From Dictyostelium discoideum (lineage: Eukaryota), in NCBI GenBank assembly GCA_000004695.1, contig CM000154.2:1728001-1792000 (forward strand): DNA of 64,000 bases. Reading direction: 5' to 3'. The notes under the pieces were generated by a model, which saw nothing but the letters and a program-made list of their open reading frames with translations, was not told the DNA's origin and ran no database searches. The translations under genes were made by a program, and so were the position numbers. Below are positions 4,418-26,474 of this stretch, in pieces (within the stretch, counting starts at the first letter, position 1; the number at the start of each line of letters is the position of its first letter).

Positions 4418-5901
4418 TTAGGAATAAGTATAAAATGAAAAGGAATTTCCATTACTAATACATAATGATGGAAAGAATGTATTATTATTAATATTGTTAG
4501 TATTACTTGTTTCACTTTGTTGATTTGAAAAATAATCAATAAATTGTAAAGTTGATAAAGATGAGAAATGACCAATTGTTTTAATTAAACTAGCAGTTGT
4601 TGTATTCCAAATTCTTATGAAACCATCATCACCACAGGCTGATAGATATTGTTGATCAGGTGATATTGAAATACCCATTCTTTTTGAAGTACCACTATTT
4701 TTATTATGTAAATATTGAGTTACAATTTTATTTACTCTTCTATCCAATTTACTAATTTCACCATTTATTGAACCAATAATTAAATAATTATCATCAACCA
4801 ATGATTTAATGAATGATATTGAATTATTATGTGGATTTAATTTTTTATTAATAATATTAATTCCAATATTATTATTATTATTATTATTATTATTAGTATT
4901 TGAATTTGAGATTGAATTGTTTTTAAATCTAATATCTAAAGTTCTAACAATACCATCTCTTGAACCGTTAAATAATAAATTACCGTTACTGTTAAAATCT
5001 TGAATGAATATATCACTTTTTGAGAGGAATTTATTTAGTAATTTTTGATTATTTAAATCATAGAGATAACAAATTCCATTACCACCAATTGAAATTAAAT
5101 GTTCATTTTGTGGATTCCATTCTGAACACCAAACACTTGTTTCATTTAACATTAAATTTCTTAAACATTGTGCATTGGCAGGTTGAGAATTAATTGAGTA
5201 AATCCAAACTGATCCATCTTTATTACCATCACCTAATGTACAAATTGATACGATTGATGGGTACTTTAAATTAGTACGAATTGAACTAACTTCACTATCC
5301 ATTGAAAATGAACTTGAAATTCCATTTTCAATCTTTATTTCAAAATTATAATTTAAATCTTGATTTCTATTAAATAAATTATCATTATTATCATTTTTAT
5401 TGTTTTTATTATTATAACAATTAATCCAATCTATTGTTATAAATGATCTACTTGATGATATTATACCTTTAGTTATAATTTCATTATTATTGTTACTAAT
5501 ACTACTACTACTACTACTATCACCAAATATTGATAAACATGTTGATGATGTTGGTTTTGAAATTGTTTTAAATTCTGAAAAATAATTACCAATCATAATA
5601 TCCTTTATATGATAATCCAATCCAATCCTTTTTATATTTTGTGTTAATTCACGTTCTATTAAAAGGTTTGAAAGATTTTTAAATTTAATAGTTGAATTAT
5701 TTGTAGTTTGTTTAATTTTAATTGGTAATTCTTCTTCTTCTTTTTCTTTTTTCTTTTTCTCTAATAACATTTGTTGTAATTCTTTAGTTAATTTAAAGTA
5801 TCTATTCTTATCAACATCAAAATAATATCCTGGAATTTCTTTATTTACATTTTGTGTTGTATTATTATTATTATTATTTGTTGTTGTAGATGTAGTGGTG
5901 G

Positions 5902-5932
<31 letters not shown>

Positions 5933-6376
5933 AGATGAATTATTATTATTTGAAGGGGGTGAATTTGCATTACTAAGGGGTTGTGGAGGACTTAGCATTA
6001 ATAATGGTGGTGTTTTCCTTCCATTATTATTATTATTATTGTTATTATTATTGTCTATATTTAATTTATTTGAAGATATTAAAGGTGGGGTTTCAATAAA
6101 TCTATTTAATTTTGGTTTTTTATCTTTACTTTTTTTGGTTATATTGTTATTATTATTATTATTAGAATGAGATTGTGGAGGTGAAGTGGCAGTTTTATTT
6201 ATTTTTTTGCTTGTTATTTTGGTTAATTTTTCATTATTTCCATCTTGTTGTTGCCCTTCTTCTTTTTCTTCTTTTGTGAATTTATTGGATTTATTGTTTC
6301 TACTATTTTGGTTATTATTATTTATTTTATTACTTTTTTTCATTTGCTTTTGTTTTGAATTATGACGACATGCCAA
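4418..6376 (-). CDS. DCAF4/WDR21-like WD40 repeat protein (DDB1-CUL4 associated factor family) with long poly-N/poly-T low-complexity inserts; true start codon uncertain
   Basis: The 652-aa ORF has an N-terminal motif 'IPGYYFDVDKNRYFKLTKELQ' matching the conserved 'LPGFYFDPEKKRYFRL' motif of DCAF4/WDR21. The C-terminal WD40 blades ('LISIGGNGICYLYDLNN', 'LSACGDDGFIRIWN') and the terminal '...SFSFYTYS' resemble the DCAF4 C-terminus '...YCYSYS'. The ORF-track start at 6376 is a TTG codon; the first in-frame ATG is 11 codons downstream (about 6343). Confidence 0.6.
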
Positions 6377-6623: not shown

Positions 6624-8547
6624 ATGACAAATAATAGTGGTAATTCCATTAAAACAAGACCTAAAAATATAGATGGTGATGCAGAAGATTCAACACGTTC
6701 AGAAAAGAAACCAGTTGTTTATGTTGAAGATCCACCAACCCCACCAAGATGGCTTTCTTATGAATTCATATTTTATTATATAATAATTGTTATTGGTTAT
6801 ATTGTTGTACTTAAAATGTTATTAACAAGATCAAATGGTAATTATAATAATAAATACTATTTCTTTAATTTTATTTTTATGGTACTAATCAAATTAATTT
6901 CAATAAAATAATAATAATATACATACATATAAATATATATAGAATATAATGATGGATTAAAAGAAAATAAAGGTATTGTTGAAGGTTGGTTTTTAGGTAG
7001 AAAACAAGATTTATCAGATACACAATATAAGATATATAGACAAAATTTCCCATTACTTTCAATTGGTTTATCAATTTTCTTATTCGTTAGTGCTTCTATT
7101 CGTAAAAACTTTCCAGTTTGTATCTTTATATAATAATAATAATTATAATTATAATAATTATAATTATAATAATTATAATAAATATAGATTATTAATTTTT
7201 AAATTTTTAAATTTTTTTTTTTAATTAAAAAAAAAATAGGATAAACCATTTGTTAGAATTTTATTTTATAATATTATATCATTAGGATTTTTAATATTTG
7301 TACATGGATCATCAACAATTATTGTATTAGGTATTGCAATTATTAATTTTAGTATTAGTAGAATTTTTGAAAGATCAAAGATGTTACCAGCAGTTACATG
7401 GATTTTCAATTTAATTATATTATGGACATGTTACATTTATGAAGGATATTCATTCAAAAGTTTATCAGGATTATTGGGTGATGAAACTTGTGTTTGGTTA
7501 GATAGTCATAAAGGATTCCTAAGTTGGGAGACATATTTCAAAGTTAGTATGTTAAGATTCATTAGTTATAACAATGATTATTATTGGGCAAAATCAAAGA
7601 GACCAGTGGTCGACCTTAAGGGAAAGAGCGCCTATTTCATAGCACAAGAACGTCATCAACCAATGGAACATTACTCATTCTCACATTTCCTTGCATACAT
7701 TTTCTATATACCATTGTATATTGCAGGACCAATCACAACATTCAATGCATTCACAGCACAAGTTTATAACCCACAAAAGACCTACTCTTTCGGTGATTTG
7801 GTTAAAGCAAGTATAAAGATACTTTTGGTGTTTTTGGGACTTGAGATCTGCCTACACTATTGTTATTATCATTCATTCGATAAGAGTGATGTATGGATGA
7901 CATTCACCGGTGCAGAGGTTGCATTGACCGGTTACTTGGTATTGAATTTCATGTATGTAAAATTCTTAATCATTTGGAGAACCTTTAGATTGTTTGCCTT
8001 GTTTGATGGTATCGATACACCAGAGAATATGAACCGTTGTGTCAATAATAACTATACATTCACTGGCTTTTGGAGATCTTGGCATGGCGCTTTCAACAAA
8101 TGGACCATTCGTTATCTTTACATTCCATTGGGTGGAAAGAAAACTCAATTCGTCTCAATTTGGATCATCTTTTTCTTCATTGGATTATGGCATGACCTTT
8201 GGTTAAGTTGGATTGCTTGGGCCCTCTTAAATTGTGTTTTCTTCTCAATTGAAATTGGTATCATGTTTTATTTCTATCATCCAAAACGTTTACCACTCCG
8301 TCGTAAATGGTATTGGAGATTCATGGTTGCCATTGCTGGTACTTTCAATATCTTTTTATTAATGGTTGCAAATTTGGCTATCCTCCATGGTTTCGAAAAT
8401 TCAATTATCTTTATTCACAATGCTTTCTTTGTACCTGGTGGTCCAACCGCTTTCATTTTAGCTTATTCTTGGTTATTCTGTGGTATTATGGTAATGATTG
8501 AACTACGTGAATCTGAAAAACGTTCAAAAGAAATTAAACCATTTTAA
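6624..8547 (+). CDS. Membrane-bound O-acyltransferase (MBOAT), Gup1/HHAT-like; 3 exons join(6624..6837,6943..7115,7240..8547)
   Basis: ATG at 6624. Exon 1 ends in phase 1 at a GTAATT donor; exon 2 reads '(E)YNDGLKENKGIVEGWFLGRKQDLSDTQYKIYRQNFPLLSIGLSIFLFVSASIRKNFP' and ends at a GTTTGT donor (7116). The TAG acceptor at 7237-7239 leads into exon 3 'DKPFVRILFYNIISLGF...', in frame with ORF 7381..8547. The MBOAT signature 'FISYNNDYYWA...SFSHFLAYIFYIPLYIAGPI' and the invariant-His region 'WRSWHGAFNKWTIRYLYIPLGG' are present, with multiple TM helices. Confidence 0.65.
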
Positions 8548-8665: not shown

Positions 8666-11403
8666 TTAATATTTTTTTTTTAATTGGGTAATCATAACTT
8701 TCCTTTTCTTATTTAAATTATTATTTCCCCAAAATGTTTCTTCTTCTGTTGTTGTTGTTGTTGGTGTTGATGATGTTGATGTTGTATTTGTTGGTTTGGT
8801 TTTTAAAAAGTCATTGCTATTATTCTTCTTTTCATTTACACTTGTACTACCAAAATTAAAACTAAATTTAGTTGGTTGAGATGATTTTGCCATTGTTGTT
8901 GATGATTTATTTAATTTTGAATTCTTTTCTTCTTTTTCTTTTTTATCATTTTCTTTTACAATTGAAAATATATTAAAACTACTTTCTTCTTTTTCATCAT
9001 TATTATTATTATTATTACTATTATTATTACTATTACTATTATTAATATTAGGTTTATTTTCATTTGTTGGTTTTATAAATAATGATCTCCATGATTGGGC
9101 AACTTTAATATCATTCTTTAAAACTTTTTTAACATTTGGATTTTGAATTTGTTTTTTTTTATTTGATTTTGATTTTGATTTTGATTTTTCTGATTCTGAC
9201 TCTTTCTCTGATTCTGATTCTGATTCTGACTCTGATTCTGATTCTGACTCTGACTCTTTCTCTGATTCTGATTCTGATTCTTTCTCTGATTGAGATTCTG
9301 ATTCTGATTCTGACTCTGATGAATTAGTAACATCTTTATTTGATTCCTTTTCACTTTCATCTTTACTTTCACTTTCACTTTCACTTTGGTTTGATTTTCC
9401 TTCAATATCCATTGAATCTTCTTTATCGTTTTCACTTGATTTATCTTCCTCGTCTTCTTTTTCACTTTGGCTGCTGCTTTGATTGTCATCACCATTTTTG
9501 GTATCTGGTGTGTCTTCATTTTCAATCTCACTTTGACTTTCACTTTCGCTATCACTTTCACTTTCACTTTCACTTTCATTTGATTTGTTATCAATAACCA
9601 TTGAATCATCTTTTTCATTCTCATTTTCACTTTCACTNNNNNNNNNNNNNNNNNNNNNNNNNNNNNNNNNNNNNNNNNNNNNNNNNNNNNNNNNNNNNNN
9701 NNNNNNNNNNNNNNNNNNNNNNNNNNNNNNNNNNNNNATAATTATTTGATGATTTATTTTCACCATCACTATCACTTTCGAATAAAACCATATCCTCACC
9801 TGAATGTGATGTGGCAGTGAATGAAGCTGCAACTTTTGATTGTTCCATTCTTCTCTTTCTAAAGGCCTCTTGTCTCTTTCTTTCACCATCTAGAGCAGAT
9901 TGTTTTTTAATATCATAATCAATAACTTTTTCTTCATATTGACCACTTTCATTTTCTGAATAACTTTTTTTATTATTTTTTAATTCATTTTTATAATAAT
10001 TTTCATCATATTCTTCTTCTCCTTCACCATAACCATATCCATCTTCACCATAATAATTTTCATCATATCCCTCTTCACCATAACCACCATTATTATTATT
10101 ATTATTATTATTATTATAATTATTATTATTATTATTTTCACTATTGTAACTATTTTTATGTTTATTATATTCATTATTATAATCATTATTAATATTTCTA
10201 TTGTTATTGTTATTATTAAATTGAGAACCATCATAATAATCACTCTCATAAAATGCACCATAACCTTTATTAAAATCATTTGATTTATTTTCATTATTTG
10301 GTACAATACTATTTTCTTCATTATTATTTTCATCATTAAATGATACAGCACCTCTATAACTATCATCATTATTATTATTATTATTATTATTATAATTATT
10401 ATAATTATTATTATAATTATTATTATAATTATCCCTACTACTATTATTATAATTATCTCTATTATTTCTATTATTTCTATTATCATTTTCAATTAAACCA
10501 TCTAAAAATTGATACTCTTTTGAAAATTGTGAATGTTTTGGTTTATTATTTTCAAAACTATTTTCTCTAGCCCATTCTGGATGTTGTTTTCTATATTCTA
10601 AATATCTTTCATACATAGCATGCATTGATTTCTTTTCTAATCTTAATCTCTTTCTAAATTTTACATTTTCTTCATCTCTTCTCTTTTCAATTTCTTTTTC
10701 TTCTTGTAATCTTTCTTCTTCTTTTTTCTTTAAAATTTCTTCTTCTTCTTCTTTTTCTTTTTTTTTAATATCATTTAATTTCTCTAAATAATTTGGTTTT
10801 GCTTTTTGAATTTTTAATACTGATCCTTTCCATTTAGTTTTATTTAAAACACTTAATGCTAAAAAAAAAATAATAAAAAAATAAAAAAATAAAAAATATT
10901 AATATATATATATATATATATTTTAATAATTTACAATATTATTATTATTTACCTTTATTTAAAGAATCAATGGTTGGGAAATAAACATTTAAATAAGCGA
11001 AACCTTTATATTGATTTGAAGATATATCATTAATAAATTCTAATTTTTCTAATTTTGTATCTTTAATCATTGAAGAGAATAAATTATCAATTTCAGAGAA
11101 TTGAATAGTTGGGTTTAAACCACCAACATATAATCTAATGGTNTTTGGATATTTATCAGCTTCAATTTGTCTTAATCTTTCTCTTTCTTCTTGTTTCTCT
11201 TTTTCAATTCTTTGTTTCTCTAATTCTGCATCTTTAACTGCTTGTTCTGCTTTATCATGTTCTTCCATTAACAGTTTCAATTCCTCTTGCTTCTTTCTTT
11301 CCTCCTCTTCAAGTTTACGTTTATCTTCTTCTTCTCTTTCTTTTTGTAAACCTTCATAATAGAAGTTCATCATACCACCAAACCTAAAATCAAAATCTCC
11401 CAT
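8666..11403 (-). CDS. NOL8/Nop8-like nucleolar RRM protein with huge acidic Ser/Glu (SESE) and Asn/Tyr-rich low-complexity tail; exons complement(join(8666..10858,10953..11403)); interrupted by a 100-N assembly gap (9638-9737) and one internal n (11143)
   Basis: Exon 1 runs from ATG 11403 as 'MGDFDFRFGG...' and ends at 10953 in phase 1. It carries the RRM RNP2 'IRLYVGGL' and RNP1 'KGFAYLNV', and ends '...DSLNK' at a GTAAAT donor. The 94-nt intron (10859-10952) is AT-rich, with a TTTTAG acceptor. Exon 2 continues 'ALSVLNKTKWKGSVLKIQKAKPNYLEKL', which matches the NOL8 RRM C-terminal motif 'SVLNKTKWKGGTLQIQLAK'. The reading frame is open through 10625 into the ORFs 9633..10625 and 8666..9889. 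Frame continuity across the N-gap cannot be determined. Confidence 0.6.
9638..9737. other. Assembly gap (100 N) inside the NOL8-like coding region
   Basis: A run of n characters; both flanks are open SESE-repeat coding sequence on the minus strand. Confidence 0.95.
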
Positions 11404-12019: not shown

Positions 12020-13216
12020 TTAATTGTTTGACCCATTTTTACCAAGGATAAAGGCTTTATGAGATGATTTTGTTACGATGAAATCATGATCGATTCTGAG
12101 ATCACCATTTTTAAAATTTGTCCAACCAATTGTTGATTGAACCACACTATAGGGTATTTCATATCTAAGTTTTGAATAAAGTTTCTCTTTAATTATTTCC
12201 TCTGCTCTAAAGAAATCACTTTGATTGGTTGATGTTTTATCAGTGAATTCCCATTGTCCAGGTTTTGCCTTGGTAAGTAAAAAGTTTGTAAGATCCTCCA
12301 CTCTAATATTTGAAGTGGCGGAAACTATAAATGTATCGGTAAAAATGTTACCTTCATTTAATTGAGATATCATTTGAACTAGAGTTTCCTTCTTTTTAAC
12401 CAAATCAACTTTATTTACCACCAATATGAATTCCTTCTCATCCAAACTATCATTCACTATTGCGCCCAATTCTTCATTGGAGGCGGTGGCAGCATTCGCT
12501 TTGGCATTGGTTTGTTCCATTCTCATTCTTTTAATTAAATTTAACATTTGTTCTTCCAATTTACCAACGATGAATTCTGTATCTGATGAATTATTATTAG
12601 TGGCATCAACAACCAATAAAACAATGTCAGCCTCTTTAACTACACCCCATGCTAAATTTACAAATTCACGTACATGTGCCATCCTATTGAAATTCTTTAT
12701 TATACCAGGTGTGTCGTGAAATAGAATTTGTGTATCATCTTTTGAGTAAATACCCAATACTGCATCTCTTGTGGTATGTTCGGTTGGTGATACTGCACAT
12801 ATCTTTTCACCAACTATTGAATTGACCAAGGTTGACTTTCCTGCATTGGGTGCTCCAATAATTGCAACATTCAATGTCTTGGCATTTTCATTGTGTATTG
12901 GTGTTTCCAATTGCATTGATTGTTCTGTGATATCTGGTGGTGTAATATTATAACTTCTAACAACACGTTTTCTTTTAATTGGTTGTGCTCTTTCTTCTCT
13001 AATCTTTTTATCTTGTTCCTCTAATATATTAATTTGATGTTGTATTGGATTAACATTTACACCATATCTTTTCATAATTGAATAATCTCTATAGAAACAT
13101 ATGTTTTTAAAATTATTTCCACTATTTATAATTATACCATCGGTTTTTAATATATTCCTTTTATTTAAAAAATTTTCATTTATTACTTTTAAAATTTTAT
13201 TTGAATTTCTTATCAT
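12020..13216 (-). CDS. Era-type GTPase (ERAL1-like, probably mitochondrial) with a C-terminal KH domain
   Basis: A 398-aa ORF with a real ATG at 13216. G1 'GAPNAGKSTLVNSIVG', G2 'TTRD', G3 'DTPGI' and G4 'NKVD' are all present. The C-terminal region 'LRYEIPYSVVQSTIGW...DHDFIVTKSSHKAFILGKNGS' is KH-like. The basic N-terminal extension is consistent with an organellar presequence. No intron is required. Confidence 0.85.
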   Translation of the reverse strand: MIRNSNKILKVINENFLNKRNILKTDGIIINSGNNFKNICFYRDYSIMKRYGVNVNPIQHQINILEEQDKKIREERAQPIKRKRVVRSYNITPPDITEQSMQLETPIHNENAKTLNVAIIGAPNAGKSTLVNSIVGEKICAVSPTEHTTRDAVLGIYSKDDTQILFHDTPGIIKNFNRMAHVREFVNLAWGVVKEADIVLLVVDATNNNSSDTEFIVGKLEEQMLNLIKRMRMEQTNAKANAATASNEELGAIVNDSLDEKEFILVVNKVDLVKKKETLVQMISQLNEGNIFTDTFIVSATSNIRVEDLTNFLLTKAKPGQWEFTDKTSTNQSDFFRAEEIIKEKLYSKLRYEIPYSVVQSTIGWTNFKNGDLRIDHDFIVTKSSHKAFILGKNGSNN

Positions 13217-14632: not shown

Positions 14633-14736
<104 letters not shown>

Positions 14737-14749
14737 TTTTTTTTAATAA

Positions 14750-15130
14750 AAAAAAAAAAAAAATTTCCCCCAAACCCCCAAAATTTGGGGGGGGGCCCCC
14801 ATTTTAAAAATTTCCCCCCCCCCCCCCCTTAAAAAAAAAAACCGGCCCAAAAGGGTTTAAAAAAAAGGGGTTAAAAAGGGTCTTATTAAGAATTGGTGAG
14901 GTAAAAAAAAAAGNNNNNNNNNNNNNNNNNNNNNNNNNNNNNNNNNNNNNNNNNNNNNNNNNNNNNNNNNNNNNNNNNNNNNNNNNNNNNNNNNNNNNNN
15001 NNNNNNNNNNNNNGGGGGGGGGGGAAAAGCCTGGGTGAAAAAAGGTGCCTTTATTTAAATCCCTATGATAAAAAATCTTTTTTGTGCCAATTGTGTTTGT
15101 TGATCCAACCCCCTGGGGGAAGTTTAATTT
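14750..15130. other. Low-quality/artefactual sequence flanking a 100-N gap (14914-15013): G/C homopolymer stutter embedded in poly(A)
   Basis: Strings such as 'ccccaaacccccaaaatttgggggggggcccccatttt...tttcccccccccccccctt' and 'ggggggggggggaaaagcctgggtgaaaaaaggtgcc' are unlike anything else in the window and sit directly next to the gap. They are preceded by a roughly 90-nt pure poly(A) run (14639-14730). Confidence 0.6.
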
Positions 15131-15501: not shown

Positions 15502-16502
15502 TAATAATTATTTAATTTTTCATCATCAACATCACTATCAATCAAAAAGTAAATTATTTAAAAAATAAAGTTGGTTTGTGAGAAACTTTTTGGTGACAAT
15601 CAATTCTAAAATCCTCTCAACTATAAATAGAAAAAAGAGTGATACTTTTAACAACAATAATTCTCAAAAAAAAAAAAAAAAAAAAAAAAAATAATAATAA
15701 TAATAAAAATAAAAATAATAGTAATTATTAGTTTTTATTAAATGAATATATTTTCTTATATTCAAAGTTTGTGGTTCCTTAAAAAGTAAATTCTACCCAC
15801 CTTCACCTTCATTATTAATTATTAGTTTAGAATTAAAAAAAAAAAATAAAAAAATAAAAAGGATTTATATAACAAATCAATATAGGCCAATTTTCGATGT
15901 ATTAATTGACAAATTATCACTTTATCAATTTCGAATAAATTAAAATTTTTTTTTATTTAATTATTGTTTTTTTTATTTATTTATTTAATAATATTATTTT
16001 TTTAATTTATTTTTATTATTATTATTTTTTTTTTTTGCAATTCCAACAATATCATCATCGATTACACCACACACATTTTCAAACTTATACCCCCACACAA
16101 TTAATAATAATTATTATTTGGTTGATTAAAAAAAAAAAAAAAAAAAAAACAAAAAAAAAAAAAAAAAACTAACCAAAGACAAAAAAAAAATCCAAAATTA
16201 AAATTTTTATCTTGTTTATATGTTTTATAAATAACTAACGCAATATATATATATATATATATATAGATAACTTCCTTTTTTAAAATCAATTCAACCAAAA
16301 TAATATTATACTTTTTTAAAATCAAAACCAACAACCCCATTTTTATTTTTATTTTTTTTTTTATTTTATTTTTATTTTATTTAATTTTTTTAAAGTTGTT
16401 CAAAAATATATCTATTTTTATAACACAATCCATTTTTATTTTATTTTATTTTAAATTTTTTTTTTTTTTTTTTTTTTTTTTAATTATATTATTTTGCATA
16501 CT

Positions 16503-16554
<52 letters not shown>

Positions 16555-16821: not shown

Positions 16822-17106
16822 ATGATTTTACAAGTCAGAGTTAAATTTCCATCAGATTATCCAGTTATTTATAAAACAATTAGGTTGGATAATTCATTAA
16901 CAGTGCAAGAGGCAATTTTAGCAATTGGTCAAGCAATTAATGTAACACCAGCTTCAGATTTGGGATTATATTTACCAGACGATCCAAAGCATTTAACAGA
17001 TACAGAATTACTTTCCTCATTTGAAAGTTTTAGTGATGCTCAATATATAGAATTAAAATCAAAGAAATCTAGTAAAAATAAAGATAGTTGCTGTACTATC
17101 ATGTAA
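16822..17106 (+). CDS. Small (94 aa) protein with a ubiquitin-like/Ras-binding-domain-like N-terminus and a C-terminal polybasic stretch plus Cys-Cys-aaX ('KSKKSSKNKDSCCTIM'), a predicted prenylated and palmitoylated membrane anchor
   Basis: A real ATG at 16822 sits in an A-rich leader. The ORF is a clean single exon in a gene-poor AT-rich stretch. The C-terminus ends in the CaaX box C-T-I-M preceded by a second Cys and a Lys/Ser-rich patch, like the Ras hypervariable region. The N-terminal 'ILQVRVKFPSDYPVIYKTIRLDNSLTVQEAILAI' has a beta-grasp-like alternation. Confidence 0.45.
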   Translation: MILQVRVKFPSDYPVIYKTIRLDNSLTVQEAILAIGQAINVTPASDLGLYLPDDPKHLTDTELLSSFESFSDAQYIELKSKKSSKNKDSCCTIM

Positions 17107-17324: not shown

Positions 17325-17367
<43 letters not shown>

Positions 17368-17651: not shown

Positions 17652-19438
17652 TTAAATCTTTTTTGAAGGAGCAACTGGAATATAAGCACCAGCAATATTA
17701 AAAGGTTTTGAAGAAGAAGCAGCAACAGTTAAAGCATGGAAAGGACCACCTTCGAATGGTTCTTTAATACCTAAAGATTTAAAAGTATTTTTAATTAAAT
17801 CATCTAAAGTTGCATAATGAGTTTGACCGCCATGATGAATATAACCAGAGCCTTGTTTATAGATGACACGAGCATGAATGATTTCTTTGTTTTTATTTAA
17901 GTAAGAGATGGCGTATGAACCAGGGTCACTACTGAAACGAAGGATATAGGTACCAGTTTTCTTACCGGCTAAATATTGAGAGGCATTCTTTGAGCTAGTT
18001 GCAGCCATGAAACCTTTGATAGAACAAATGGAGTAAACTTTATCAAAGAATTCCCTACCGTTAGTCAATGGACCAACCCAAGTTAAAATCTTACCAAAGT
18101 TATCAATGGTCACCATATCACTATCAACTGGCACCAATAAAAGTTTTAAGAATTTAATTTTAATATCATCAGCGGATAAATTTGATTCGAAACCACAATA
18201 GAGTGAAAAGTTTACAATGAATGAATTCCAAGGTACCTCCTCCTTGCCCATATAGTATTGACTCCAAAATTGTCTAGCACTAGAGTCTAAAATCAAACCA
18301 TCGATTAAAATGGTTTCCAAGATTCTTTGTTTTGAGATTTCTGCGAATGATGGACGACGTGATGGATAGTGGTCCCAGCATCTTGCTAAAAGGTCCTTTA
18401 AACGAGTTGGGAAATAGTCTGGAATAATTGGACGATTCTTTTTATTGACCACACCTTCCACCAATTGTGGATAGGAGCTGTACAATTTATTGTATGGTTC
18501 TTGTTTGGTCAACAATTCCCAAAGGAGTATTGAGAATGAGAAAACATCGACTTTACCATCGTATGGTTGGTTGACCAACATCTCTGGTGCCATGTAAAGT
18601 GGTGAACCAGCTTGACCCAATAGTTTATCTTTAGAATCTGGTTTCATATACTTACTAAGACCGAAATCGGCCACCTTTACCACCCAATTTTGGTCGACCA
18701 ATAAATTTGCGGGCTTCAAATCCAAATGGAGAATATTTGATGCGTGTAACCATGTCATACCCAATACTGTGTCACGTGCTATTAAAATTGCACGTTTAAA
18801 AGTGATGAAATCTGATGTATCCTCTTTTGCACGTAACAATGAATGAACGGACCCTTTTGGCATTAACTCTGTCACAATTGATAGATCCTCTGGTGCTGTA
18901 CATGCACCCATAAATAAAAGTAAATGAGGATTACGTAATTTTGCCATTAAACTAACTTCCTTTTTAAATTCATTCATTGTATTCTCTTCAAATACTGTTT
19001 GTGTCAATTTCTTAATTGCAACTTCTTTACCCCTAACAATACCCTTATAGACTGATCCAAATGCTCCACTACCCAATTTGGCTTCACGATTATATGATAT
19101 TTCATTTCTATCGATTTCCCATCTAATTATCTCTTCTTCATCTCTATTCTTTGTTGAATCTGGTGATATAGTTGATGTTGAATCTTCTGTTAATGATCCA
19201 TTTAAAATTACACTTGAATAATTTTGATTACTATCACTTGAATTTGTATTATTACTATTATTATTATTATTATTAGGATTAATTCTAAATGATGAGATTT
19301 TTAATTGCTCCCATGCACTAATTATACTTGTATCATTTGGTTGTTTTTGTTCAACCAATAAATTTGTAATAATTTCTTGTCTATATCTTTCTAATGTTTG
19401 TATTTTTTCTGCTTTTAATTTTAAATCAATTAACTAAT

Positions 19439-19469
<31 letters not shown>

Positions 19470-19588
19470 GTGAATAGAAAATGAGAAAAAAAAAAAAAAA
19501 AAAAAAAAAAAATGGATGGAAAATAAAAAAAAAAAATAAAAAAATGTTAATTATATTTTTATTATTTTTATTATTATTATTATTATTA

Positions 19589-19670
<82 letters not shown>

Positions 19671-19854
19671 ATACAGATTCAGTAAATAATTTATTGATTA
19701 ATTCTCTTTCTTGAGCTGGATTTTGTGAATTAATTGCATTATCAACCAATGTACGAATTTCAAGTTCTTTAGAAGCTTGCTTTGATTCTAGTTGTTTAAC
19801 TTCTTCTGTTAATTGAAGAATGGAACTTTCAAGCTTTGAGATTTTATCGTTCAT
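17652..19854 (-). CDS. SH2 domain-containing dual-specificity protein kinase (Dictyostelium Shk family type); exons complement(join(17652..19433,19675..19854)); coordinates +/-1
   Basis: Exon 1 is 'MNDKISKLESSILQLTEEVKQLESKQASKELEIRTLVDNAINSQNPAQERELINKLFTES' (coiled coil) with ATG at 19854-19852 and a GTATGT donor at 19674. The roughly 240-nt intron is full of (AAT)n/poly(A), with a TAG acceptor at 19436-19434. Exon 2 continues 'LIDLKLKAEKIQTLERYRQEIITNLLVEQKQ...' into the 568-aa ORF. The kinase motifs 'HLDLKPANLLV' and 'VADFGLS' are present, and the C-terminal SH2 domain is 'WVGPLTNGREFF...GTYILRFSSDPGSYAISYL'. The ORF-track start at 19358 is a TTG codon inside exon 2. Confidence 0.7.
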
Positions 19855-20710
19855 TCTTCTTTTATTATTATTATTATTTTTTTTTTTTGTGGTGCTATAA
19901 TATAATATGGATTTATGAGTAAAGTGGTCCAATGAAAAAAAAAAAAAAAAAAGAAAAGGTGGAAAAAAATAAAGATAAACAATGGAAAACAAATATAAAA
20001 ATAAAAAAAAAAAAAGAAAAAATAAAAGATTATTTTTACACTCAAAAAAAAAAAAAAATCAGCAAAAAAAAAAAAAATAAAAAAAATAAAAAAAAAAAAT
20101 AAAATTAAAAAAAAATAAAATAAAAAAAAAAAAAAAAGTTGGATTCAACCAACAAAGTTTATGAAAAAAAAAAAAAACTTGAGAAAAAAATTAACTTATC
20201 TATGTTAAATTATTGTTATTACTTTCAATCTTATTTAAATATTGTTACTTATTAGTACTTTTTTTTTTTTATGTTTTTGAAATTTTTTATTTTTATTTTT
20301 AATTTTATTTATTTTTTTTTGAAAATAAAAACACACCAAAAAATGTTTACCCCTTTATAAATTTTTTTTTTGATAAATTTAGATAAAGATTTAATCAAAA
20401 AAAAAAAAAAAAAGTTAATTAAAATATCTTTTTTCATATCATTTTTTTTTTTTTTTCATTTTTTTTTTTCACAAATTAAAAATAGATATTTTTAATCAGG
20501 AAAAAAAAAGTAATCAAAATAAAATAAAAAAAATGATTACAAATATTTTTTCAAATTTACAAATTATAAAAACTCTTTAAACTATTAAATAAAAAAAAAA
20601 ATAAAAAAATAAAAAAATAGAATAGTTATTGATCTATTAAAGATTTTTTTTTTTAATAAAAAAATTTATTTATAAAGTACAAGAAAGATTTTAAAAAAGA
20701 AAATTAAAAA

Positions 20711-21538
20711 TTAAGGTCTGTACAATCCATCTTGAAAAGAATTTAATTGACTTAATTGATGTTGTCTTTGTTGTTGTAATAATTGTTGTTGTTGAAGGAA
20801 ATATTGTTGTTGGACTTGTTGTTGAGTTTGTCCTAAAAGGTTTTGTTGTTGTAATAATTGAAATTGTTGATTTTTAATTTGTTGATTAACTAAAGCATCA
20901 TTACTACCAATACCAATGCCACTAGTGTTTTGTTGAAATAATAATTGGGTCTCTAATTTCTTGATTTTTTCATCTTTTTCTTTATTTGATTTAATTAAGT
21001 CACTTAAAACTGTTCTTAGAGATAAATGGTAACAATTGATTTCATGTATTGAAACTTCTGATTTCGTAGATCTGAATGGACATAAAATATCTTGACCACT
21101 GCAATTAACAATTGCCATTGAACAATCGAATTTAATATGATGATCGAATTCGGATCGGGTGAATTTGGATCCACAACCTTCACAGTGCTGTGATTTACAT
21201 TGTTTGTCCAAATGCATTGATTTATATTCACCCCTTTTAATTGACGATACATCATCACATAATGTACATGTCACTAATGCTTCATTTAATTTATTTGATA
21301 CATACTTTGCTACGATTCCAATCGATGCCATTTGATTACATAATGGACAAATTGGTTTAACTGATATTGCATTATTTATACATTCCCTACAAAACATTTG
21401 ACCACATTGACTCTCCACAACTGGATCATTTAATACTTCTAAACAAATTGCACATTCTAATCCATTATCGATTTTCTCAGGTTCTAAATATTTAAATGTA
21501 ATATTATTATTTCCATTTTTATTAAAAGGATTATTCAT
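20711..21538 (-). CDS. RING-finger plus TRAF-type zinc-finger protein (TRAF-like E3 ligase) with a C-terminal coiled coil and poly-Q
   Basis: A 275-aa ORF with a real ATG. The C3HC4 RING is 'CAICLEVLNDPVVESQCGQMFCRECINNAISVKPICPLC'. A TRAF-type Cys/His-rich zinc finger follows ('CTLCDDVSS...HLDKQCKSQHCEGCGSKFTRSEFDHHIKFDC...VNCSGQDILCPF'), then 'KEKDEKIKKLETQL' and a Q-rich tail. Confidence 0.7.
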   Translation of the reverse strand: MNNPFNKNGNNNITFKYLEPEKIDNGLECAICLEVLNDPVVESQCGQMFCRECINNAISVKPICPLCNQMASIGIVAKYVSNKLNEALVTCTLCDDVSSIKRGEYKSMHLDKQCKSQHCEGCGSKFTRSEFDHHIKFDCSMAIVNCSGQDILCPFRSTKSEVSIHEINCYHLSLRTVLSDLIKSNKEKDEKIKKLETQLLFQQNTSGIGIGSNDALVNQQIKNQQFQLLQQQNLLGQTQQQVQQQYFLQQQQLLQQQRQHQLSQLNSFQDGLYRP

Positions 21539-25243: not shown

Positions 25244-26474
25244 TCAAAAGTCTGAATCACTATCATCGTATTCATTCTCATCTGGATTATCGAAATCATT
25301 GAGTTGAGCGAAATCTACTTGATAACGGAGTAAACCACCCAAACCACCAAAACCTTTACAGAATTGTGAACCTTCTTGAGATTTGTTGGTGACGAATTCG
25401 AGAGAGGCACCAAAGTTTTTGTAGTTATTGGCGAACCACTCAACGATTGGCATTTCTTCGACGATTTCATAGTCAAGACCAGATTCTTTATCCTTAAAGA
25501 CAGAGGCATCTTTATTTTGATCTTTATTTAAAAAGATGACTTTCTCTTCACCAGTTGGTAAACGAAGTAAGTAACGAATTGTTTCCAATGATTCCCAAAC
25601 GATTAAAGTGTGAGCAGCACCCAAGTCCAAAGCTTTCAAAGTATCAGCGATACCGAAACAATACTTACCAGTGTCTTGTGCGATCTCTTCAAAGAATTGT
25701 GAGATTAATTTCTTCTCTTGAATGAATTTGACACTTGAGAGAACTTCACCAGATAATTCGATAGCTTGATTGAAACCATTATCACCACCATAGGAAACAT
25801 CGACGATTTTAATGATCTTTTCACGAAGACGTTGATCAAACATATCAGAGGTACCAAGTTCAGTCTTGAAATCGGCAGAACCAGCTAAAATCAAACCTGA
25901 AACGTTTGGTTTATCATTGGTGACGTAGAATTGGGTGGCCAACTCTGAAACTTTACGAACGTAATTGTGACGTTTTTCCATACGAAGACGAGCGAAACGA
26001 AGGGCAGATTGACCACCACGACCGTGTTTCTTTGGGAGATCTACTGTAATCTTATGGAGAACTGTTCTGGTTGAACCACATAATAAACCAAAGAGTGCAC
26101 CATTACCATCTACGACGATGAAACCAAACTTTTCATCACTCTCTAATAATTCACCCAATGGTGCTGTATGGAATTTATTATCACATAAATAGAGTGAGGT
26201 ATTGATTGGTTTGAATGGTTCAATATCGATACGTACTGGTTTCTCTTTACCTTCATCTGTAACCATTGTACCGCAATAAATAACTAAACCATTATCTGGT
26301 ACTTTAGTATATAACTTTAATCTTTGTTGTGCTGATGTAATTGCACCCAATACTGATAATCTATTAACTCTTGATTTAATATTTGATGCTGTACCATACT
26401 CTTCTGCTAACATTTTATTAACTTTTGCAATTTGATCACCTGGACGAATAATTAATGAAATCATAGATGTACCA

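Follow-up and report, generated by a model that had tools for sequence, protein, structure and literature searches.

DDB_G0288615, a small Dictyostelium protein with a talin-F0/SHANK-SPN-type domain and a predicted lipid anchor, and its amoebozoan family

Introduction

The F0 domain of talin and the SPN domain of SHANK3—both with the beta-grasp fold of ubiquitin—are experimentally proven binders of the small GTPases Rap1 and Ras. Talin F0, which binds membrane-anchored Rap1-GTP, always precedes the F1-F2-F3 domains and the rod, and reaches the membrane via Rap1 and basic surfaces rather than through a lipid of its own; SHANK3 SPN stands at the N-terminus of a large scaffold found in metazoans (ANK-SH3-PDZ-SAM), is regulated by packing on the ankyrin repeats and likewise lacks a lipid anchor. 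To our knowledge, F0 and SPN domains have otherwise been found only within large proteins. Here we describe DDB_G0288615, a free-standing 94-amino-acid protein of Dictyostelium discoideum AX4 that joins a domain of this type to a predicted C-terminal lipid anchor and belongs to an ancient, hitherto undescribed amoebozoan family. Its gene occupies positions 16822–17106 (forward strand) of a 64,000-nucleotide stretch of chromosome 5 (GenBank assembly GCA_000004695.1, contig CM000154.2, positions 1,728,001 to 1,792,000), hereafter the window, to which all coordinates below refer. An earlier note, drawn from the letters of this stretch alone, had picked out the open reading frame (ORF) as a ubiquitin-fold protein with a Ras-style membrane anchor.

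Among described domains, talin F0 (PF16511), including the F0/RA (Ras-association) domain of Dictyostelium TalinB, shows the strongest sequence-profile relationship to DDB_G0288615, and the key lysine of those domains (K15 in talin-1, K16 in TalinB) aligns with the near-invariant K18 of the new protein. However, the 94 residues hold only the domain and the anchor, and the absence of F1-F2-F3 makes DDB_G0288615 a relative of the F0 domain, not a talin. SHANK3 SPN resembles it in both sequence and structure, with R12 and K22 aligning with R6 and K18; it differs in that DDB_G0288615 stands free of any ankyrin repeats, has two extra residues in its beta1-beta2 hairpin and ends in a CC-aaX motif of its own.

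Two further groups of proteins invite comparison at the C-terminus. MUB/UBL3 proteins, a known case of a ubiquitin fold with a C-CaaX end that the earlier note overlooked, share with DDB_G0288615 a small ubiquitin-like domain, a short linker and a CaaX box immediately preceded by a further Cys (CCVIL at the end of human UBL3), and neither is a conjugatable ubiquitin-like modifier of the Gly-Gly type. The tails of Ras and Rho proteins (a polybasic stretch plus CVIM in K-Ras4B; a Cys plus CaaX in H-Ras and RhoB) have in common with it a Met-ending CaaX box and second signals in the form of a neighbouring Cys and a run rich in Lys, but DDB_G0288615 has no GTPase domain.

Results

The complete single-exon coding sequence (CDS; 16822–17106, forward strand) runs from an ATG in A-rich context (AAAAAAATCAAAAAA-ATG) to a TAA stop at 17104–17106, and its 94-residue product, which ends in KSKKSSKNKDSCCTIM, is 100% identical to the annotated DDB_G0288615, an unnamed "hypothetical protein". 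A short ORF in very AT-rich surroundings, downstream of an assembly gap and without a publication to its name, might be a chance ORF or a mis-annotation of intergenic DNA, or might owe its C-terminus to a frameshift artefact. Its composition tells otherwise: GC content is 28.8% against 14.2% and 12.7% in the flanks, the codon positions follow a typical coding gradient (GC1 37%, GC2 35%, GC3 15%) and an ORF of equal length arose in only two of 500 mononucleotide shuffles of the local 2.6-kb region. So do full-length orthologues of 92–95 amino acids in Dictyostelium purpureum (81% identity), Polysphondylium violaceum (68%) and Cavenderia fasciculata (72%). The D. discoideum and D. purpureum coding sequences align end to end (78% nucleotide identity, E 3e-63), with only low-complexity matches in the flanks. 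Ratios of non-synonymous to synonymous substitution (dN/dS, Nei-Gojobori) of 0.12 between D. discoideum and D. purpureum, 0.33 between D. discoideum and P. violaceum and 0.26 between D. purpureum and P. violaceum show that the gene is under purifying selection.

The earlier note had itself proposed homopolymer-induced frameshifting as a way in which its reading might fail. No run within the ORF exceeds five nucleotides, and K-S-K-K and C-C-[TI]-I-M are invariant at the C-termini of all four dictyostelid orthologues, so the C-terminus is in frame. Taken with a family of 80 representatives (some of them transcriptome-derived) and a confidently predicted fold, both described below, these results led us to reject the artefact, which now seems scarcely credible. 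The ORF first called from sequence is thus borne out, and DDB_G0288615 is almost certainly a genuine protein-coding gene with an F0/SPN-type domain.

As to gene structure, the D. discoideum, D. purpureum and P. violaceum genes consist of single exons. The C. fasciculata orthologue (L002 6001–6797) is annotated over 797 bp for a product of 92 amino acids, which implies introns.

An exhaustive hidden Markov model (HMM) search with a dictyostelid profile against 1.84 billion cluster representatives placed DDB_G0288615 in a family of 80 representatives at E ≤ 1e-3 (39 at E ≤ 1e-10), most of them about 100 amino acids long. It was this search that revealed the family: a word-indexed search with a 23-sequence family alignment (A2) returned 10 proteins and missed most members, and one with the Thecamonas member added a single further close relative. 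Labelled members come from Dictyostelia (including Synstelium), Nematostelium, Soliformovum, Entamoeba marina, Mastigamoeba, Mastigella, Thecamoeba, Vexillifera, Rhizamoeba and the apusomonad Thecamonas trahens; every labelled representative save the one from Thecamonas is amoebozoan, and at least eight other labelled amoebozoans carry family members in transcriptome assemblies. On our reading of the taxonomy, these taxa span all three major amoebozoan lineages (Evosea, Discosea and Tubulinea) plus one obazoan, a deep phylogenetic distribution that we take to resemble that of talin. A literature search for DDB_G0288615 found no publication, and searches on F0 with CAAX and Amoebozoa and on Rap1-effector terms found no account of the family.

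Weaker, multi-domain relatives, some amoebozoan and some unlabelled (P0070, P0073, P0069 from Soliformovum irregulare, P0051, P0065 and P0071 from Mastigella eilhardi) fuse the domain in several ways: three F0/RA copies with a RasGEF; F0 with PH and kinase domains; SH2, F0, PH and kinase; and two F0 copies with C2. These fusions are consistent with a membrane-proximal signalling role.

Several sequence peculiarities were seen among the members. Many non-dictyostelid members have an apparent intron right after the '...LQD' codons, and many unlabelled representatives continue past '...LQDV' into junk sequence, which we read as unspliced intron in metagenomic gene calls. One metagenomic member of 257 amino acids (P0020) has the F0-like domain, then a segment of about 160 amino acids with weak, sub-threshold Hint/AXH-like Pfam matches, then a C-terminal CCAVV; the segment, which separates the domain from the lipid anchor, may be an inserted element of intein-like or autoprocessing nature.

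Residues 1–80 (16822–17061) make up the beta-grasp domain of talin-F0/SHANK-SPN type. An AlphaFold model built from the four dictyostelid sequences was poor (predicted local distance difference test, pLDDT, 59.7) and was set aside, but alignment A2 gave a mean pLDDT of 84.2 and a predicted template modelling score of 0.72. The predicted elements are strands at residues 2–8, 17–23, 47–51, 54–57 and 76–80 and helices at 28–38 and 68–72, arranged as beta-beta-alpha-beta-beta-(short helix)-beta, with a disordered tail at residues 86–94 (pLDDT <50). The top structural matches of this model are SPN-Rap1b complexes, in keeping with the earlier suggestion of a beta-grasp fold over some 75 residues.

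Fold alone does not discriminate among the relatives; sequence profiles do. Against all Protein Data Bank (PDB) sequences, the A2 profile matched talin-1 F0 (4e-9), talin-2 (6e-9) and SHANK3 SPN (0.0048), and past these talin F0 and SPN domains the next match had an E value of 0.6. Pairwise comparison with hhalign gave 96.5% for talin-1 F0 (E 8e-10) and 94.9% for SHANK3 SPN (E 4e-8, 84 columns). The specifically RBD/RA-like (Ras-binding or Ras-association) character that had been proposed therefore gains support from proven Rap1/Ras binders, whose basic residues align with R6 and K18. The Pfam FERM_f0 model (PF16511) matched 20 of the 23 family members, and two representatives passed its gathering score of 26.9 bits (P0007 at 29.3 and P0060 at 28.0). 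One score tells against the assignment, as the D. discoideum sequence alone reaches only 19.8 bits; however, SHANK3 SPN, a proven homologue used as a control, also falls under the cut-off (24.9 bits), so the shortfall is not disqualifying.

Homology to UBL3/MUB was considered and rejected at the sequence level: hhalign gave 6% against human UBL3, no family member matched PF13881 (UBL3/MUB), on which UBL3 itself scores 121.4 bits, and no UBL3/MUB chain appeared among the PDB profile matches.

The most conserved segment of the family is the beta1-hairpin-beta2 edge, residues 6–23 (RVKFPSDYPVIYKTIRLD; 16837–16890, forward strand), which we regard as a putative docking edge for the switch I region of a GTPase. 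Its family consensus is [RK]-[IV]-K-F-P-x-[TS]-Y-P-x-I-Y-K-T-x-R-x-D, and conservation is high at P10 (75/75), P14 (76/76), F9 (72/75) and K18 (77/81), with a basic residue at position 6 in 73 of 75 sequences. Arg6 (codon 16837–16839) is aligned by hhalign with R12 of SHANK3 SPN; its match to talin-1 K7 comes from a manual beta1 register, the tool alignments to talin starting at residue 14–17. Lys18 (codon 16873–16875) is aligned by the tools with both SHANK3 K22 and talin-1 K15, a position that the TalinB study equates with K16 of Dictyostelium TalinB (PMC4861126).

Counterparts of these residues bear on GTPase binding in all three described domains. In the structure of talin F0 with Rap1b, K7 touches Rap1b E37 and K15 and R35 touch D33, the same edge pairs with Rap1 beta2, and the K15A/R35A mutant loses Rap1 binding (PMC5701058). 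Likewise, K16A in Dictyostelium TalinB abolishes Rap1 binding and function (PMC4861126), and in SHANK3 SPN R12 and K22 touch switch I and the R12E/K22D mutant no longer binds KRAS (PMC11393128).

Several observations weigh against GTPase binding by the new protein. Talin R35, in helix alpha1, corresponds to Ala38 in DDB_G0288615, which is not basic, and the family consensus of that helix is acidic (E30, with position 37 mostly E/D). The F0 domain of kindlin-2, which lacks two of the three positive residues seen in talin, has the F0 fold without Rap1 binding (PMC5701058), and even where F0 does bind Rap1 the affinity is weak, with dissociation constants of ~20 µM for TalinB (PMC4861126) and 0.14 mM for talin-1 (PMC5701058). 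DDB_G0288615 might thus be a membrane-tethered adaptor of the kindlin-F0 kind, binding lipids or a protein (a FERM head, a kinase or a receptor tail) as a membrane docking tag and not contacting GTPases at all. We think this unlikely, as kindlin F0 lacks two of the basic residues at the interface whereas the family keeps both of those on the beta-strands (73/75 and 77/81), and its closest relatives in sequence and structure are the GTPase-binding F0 and SPN domains. Retention of both beta-strand interface residues, with the helix contribution lost, favours GTPase binding by DDB_G0288615 without proving it, and we put it forward as a tentative prediction with a little less than even confidence.

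Beyond the domain lies a flexible Lys-rich linker, KSKKSSKNKDS (residues 79–89, 17056–17088; five Lys and one Asp), of which KSKK is invariant in the four dictyostelids. It leads to Cys90 (17089–17091), a candidate S-palmitoylation site on the analogy of H-Ras and RhoB, or a candidate reactive Cys like C113 of UBL3. The protein closes with the CaaX box C91-T-I-M94 (17092–17103), a predicted farnesylation signal of which C-x-I-M is invariant in dictyostelids. The CTIM box and the extra Cys reported in the earlier note are therefore present and conserved; its residue numbers were one too high, the cysteines that it proposed to mutate as C91S/C92S being C90 and C91, with C91 as the CaaX Cys.

Canonical CaaX rules are tolerant at a1, demand a hydrophobic a2 and give Met at X as the preference of farnesyltransferase (FTase) (PMC3017772). 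C91-T-I-M conforms on each count (a tolerant a1, Ile at a2, Met at X) and sits on a flexible tail (pLDDT <50). The two dictyostelid variants of the box, CTIM and CIIM, occur natively in yeast Rho4 and Rho3 (PMC11304957). Dictyostelium NE81 has a working CLIM box, and the genome encodes the processing enzymes (fntA/fntB, zmpste24 and icmA; PMC3258179).

We surveyed the C-termini of stand-alone representatives that extend to the last beta-strand. Among the 24 that end in a CaaX box, 17 have an adjacent CC-aaX, 19 have an extra Cys within six residues and 18 have Ile at a2. Eight others (P0043, P0056, P0059, P0060 from Nematostelium gracile, P0062, P0077, P0082 and P0067) carry instead a hydrophobic transmembrane (TM) tail anchor, so that, with few exceptions, stand-alone members that are correctly spliced finish with one or the other: a TM tail anchor or a CaaX box, the latter mostly of the CC-aaX form. 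That one domain comes with two different anchoring devices is a strong argument for membrane tethering as the property under selection, and from these sequence features DDB_G0288615 is very probably lipid-anchored. The sister branch with TM tails retains the F0-like domain and has Lys in place of Arg as the basic residue of beta1.

The polybasic patch fits less well, as it is not kept across the family: dictyostelids and some others (such as Entamoeba and Mastigamoeba) have a basic linker, most of the rest a neutral or acidic one. Members without the extra Cys were expected to have the more basic linkers; net charge was +1.8 in these (n = 5) and 0.0 in those with the Cys (n = 19), a trend in that direction that is not significant (p = 0.075). 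The label "K-Ras-style" given earlier to the anchor thus holds for the CaaX box and Lys patch of dictyostelids; family-wide the second signal is the adjacent Cys, closer to H-Ras, RhoB and UBL3. Since the family keeps the extra Cys and not the polybasic stretch, the resemblance to K-Ras4B is dictyostelid-specific.

That same Cys raises the question of a functional analogy with MUB/UBL3, in which the prenyl-anchored ubiquitin fold would recruit non-GTPase partners such as E2 enzymes, as plant MUBs do, or C90 would attach covalently to cargo and direct it to multivesicular bodies or extracellular vesicles; the corresponding Cys of UBL3 serves cargo modification (PMC10511055). The architecture is identical (a ubiquitin fold of about 80 amino acids, a short linker and C-CaaX), and the adjacent double Cys of 17 of the 24 CaaX members matches that of animal UBL3. 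However, the two groups share no homology detectable by the three comparisons given above, the most conserved surface of the new family is its RA-type beta1-beta2 edge, and a whole branch has, in place of CC-aaX, a TM helix lacking any such Cys, which argues that the Cys is there for anchoring rather than conjugation. We consider the analogy improbable, and the described functions of MUB/UBL3 (E2 recruitment and Cys-dependent cargo modification) use a different surface. At the sequence level, the likeness looks like convergence on a ubiquitin fold plus lipid tail.

The surroundings of DDB_G0288615 differ from their first description. The gene does not stand alone, for a convergent gene encoding a kinase with an SH2 domain (17652–19358, reverse strand) lies 545 bp downstream, tail to tail. 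The kinase that this neighbour encodes is of the Dictyostelium Shk type and has its SH2 domain at the C-terminus (Pkinase 4e-55, SH2 6e-9), and 19441–19992 (reverse strand), with a long poly-Asn tract, is probably an upstream exon of the same gene. The neighbours of the gene differ in all four dictyostelids and the pairing with the kinase is not kept in the others, so genomic context offers no functional clue. Nor does an assembly gap adjoin the gene: the 100-N gap at 14914–15013 lies 1.8 kb upstream of the ORF.

The window holds a second 100-N gap at 9638–9737, crossed by the mechanically called ORFs 8666–9889 and 9633–10625 (reverse strand), which for that reason are not to be trusted, and a single N at 11143. 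The flanks of the gap at 14914–15013 (14787–14828 and 15014–15024) contain G9, C15 and G11 runs, atypical of a genome with 22% GC, which suggests low-quality contig ends. Intergenic extremes around the gene, all outside the ORF, include homopolymers (A96 at 14637–14732, T50 at 16505–16554 and A39 at 17325–17363) and a (TA)11 microsatellite at 16243–16264. The other neighbours are ordinary genes with no evident functional tie to DDB_G0288615: a ClpB-like AAA ATPase (286–2370, reverse), a WD40 protein (4418–6376, reverse), an MBOAT acyltransferase (7381–8547, forward), an MMR_HSR1-type GTPase (12020–13216, reverse), a RING-finger protein (20711–21538, reverse) and eRF1 (25244–26464, reverse).

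Discussion

We propose, with a confidence that falls somewhat short of even, that DDB_G0288615 is a minimal lipid-tethered module of the Ras-association type that binds or buffers an active small GTPase. Residues 1–80 supply a beta-grasp domain of the talin-F0/SHANK3-SPN lineage and residues 81–94 a flexible Lys-rich tether ending in C90-C91-T-I-M. In such a scheme C91 would be farnesylated by the Dictyostelium FTase (fntA/fntB), the -TIM tripeptide cleaved and the new C-terminus methylated, after which C90 would probably be S-acylated; the lipids and the five lysines would then hold the domain against plasma or endosomal membranes on their cytosolic side.

Held there by a tether of about ten residues, the F0/SPN-type module could dock its beta1-beta2 edge (R6, K8, K18 and R21) on switch I of a Ras-family GTPase that carries GTP and shares the membrane by virtue of its own prenyl group. 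The likeliest partner would be Rap1, given that the F0 domains of TalinB and talin-1 and the SPN domain all bind Rap1. As the protein has no other domain, the simplest outcome of binding would be competition with effectors (TalinB F0, RA-domain proteins) and GTPase-activating proteins (GAPs), and such competition might leave the active GTPase buffered, sequestered or stabilised, much as the SHANK3 SPN domain acts on Rap1 and KRAS. That domain keeps Rap1-GTP sequestered, is a competitor of talin and RAF, and in mammalian cells limits integrin activation and KRAS output. By analogy, a role as buffer or competitor is conceivable for DDB_G0288615, but we hold it doubtful.

A bolder extension, to which we give slightly less credence still, would see an ancient family of membrane-tethered "GTPase sponges" in at least the three major lineages of Amoebozoa and in Thecamonas. 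Each would be one F0/SPN-type RA domain with a lipid or TM anchor of its own, competing in the plane of the membrane for the active GTPase and so tuning the threshold for signalling from Rap and Ras to their effectors, for example from Rap1 to TalinB in adhesion. Such proteins may even represent a free-standing ancestral F0 domain, from which the copies in talin heads, SHANK scaffolds, RasGEFs and PH-kinases arose by later fusion.

Conclusions

The literature searched gives no account of the gene or its family. The architecture of a ubiquitin fold plus C-CaaX was already known from MUB/UBL3, but the domain described here is of another lineage; this combination appears to have arisen at least twice, in MUB/UBL3 and in the F0/SPN lineage. 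The F0/SPN domain family now extends to free-standing proteins of deep phylogenetic distribution. Cortical Rap1/Ras signalling in Dictyostelium—in adhesion, macropinocytosis and chemotaxis—has been heavily studied, and its known players are guanine nucleotide exchange factors, GAPs and multi-domain effectors. The small single-exon gene and the tractable organism make the hypothesis directly testable; if it is true, this conserved 94-amino-acid protein, no more than a lipid-tethered RA-type domain, would stand for a new kind of regulator that competes for active GTPases or buffers them within the membrane.

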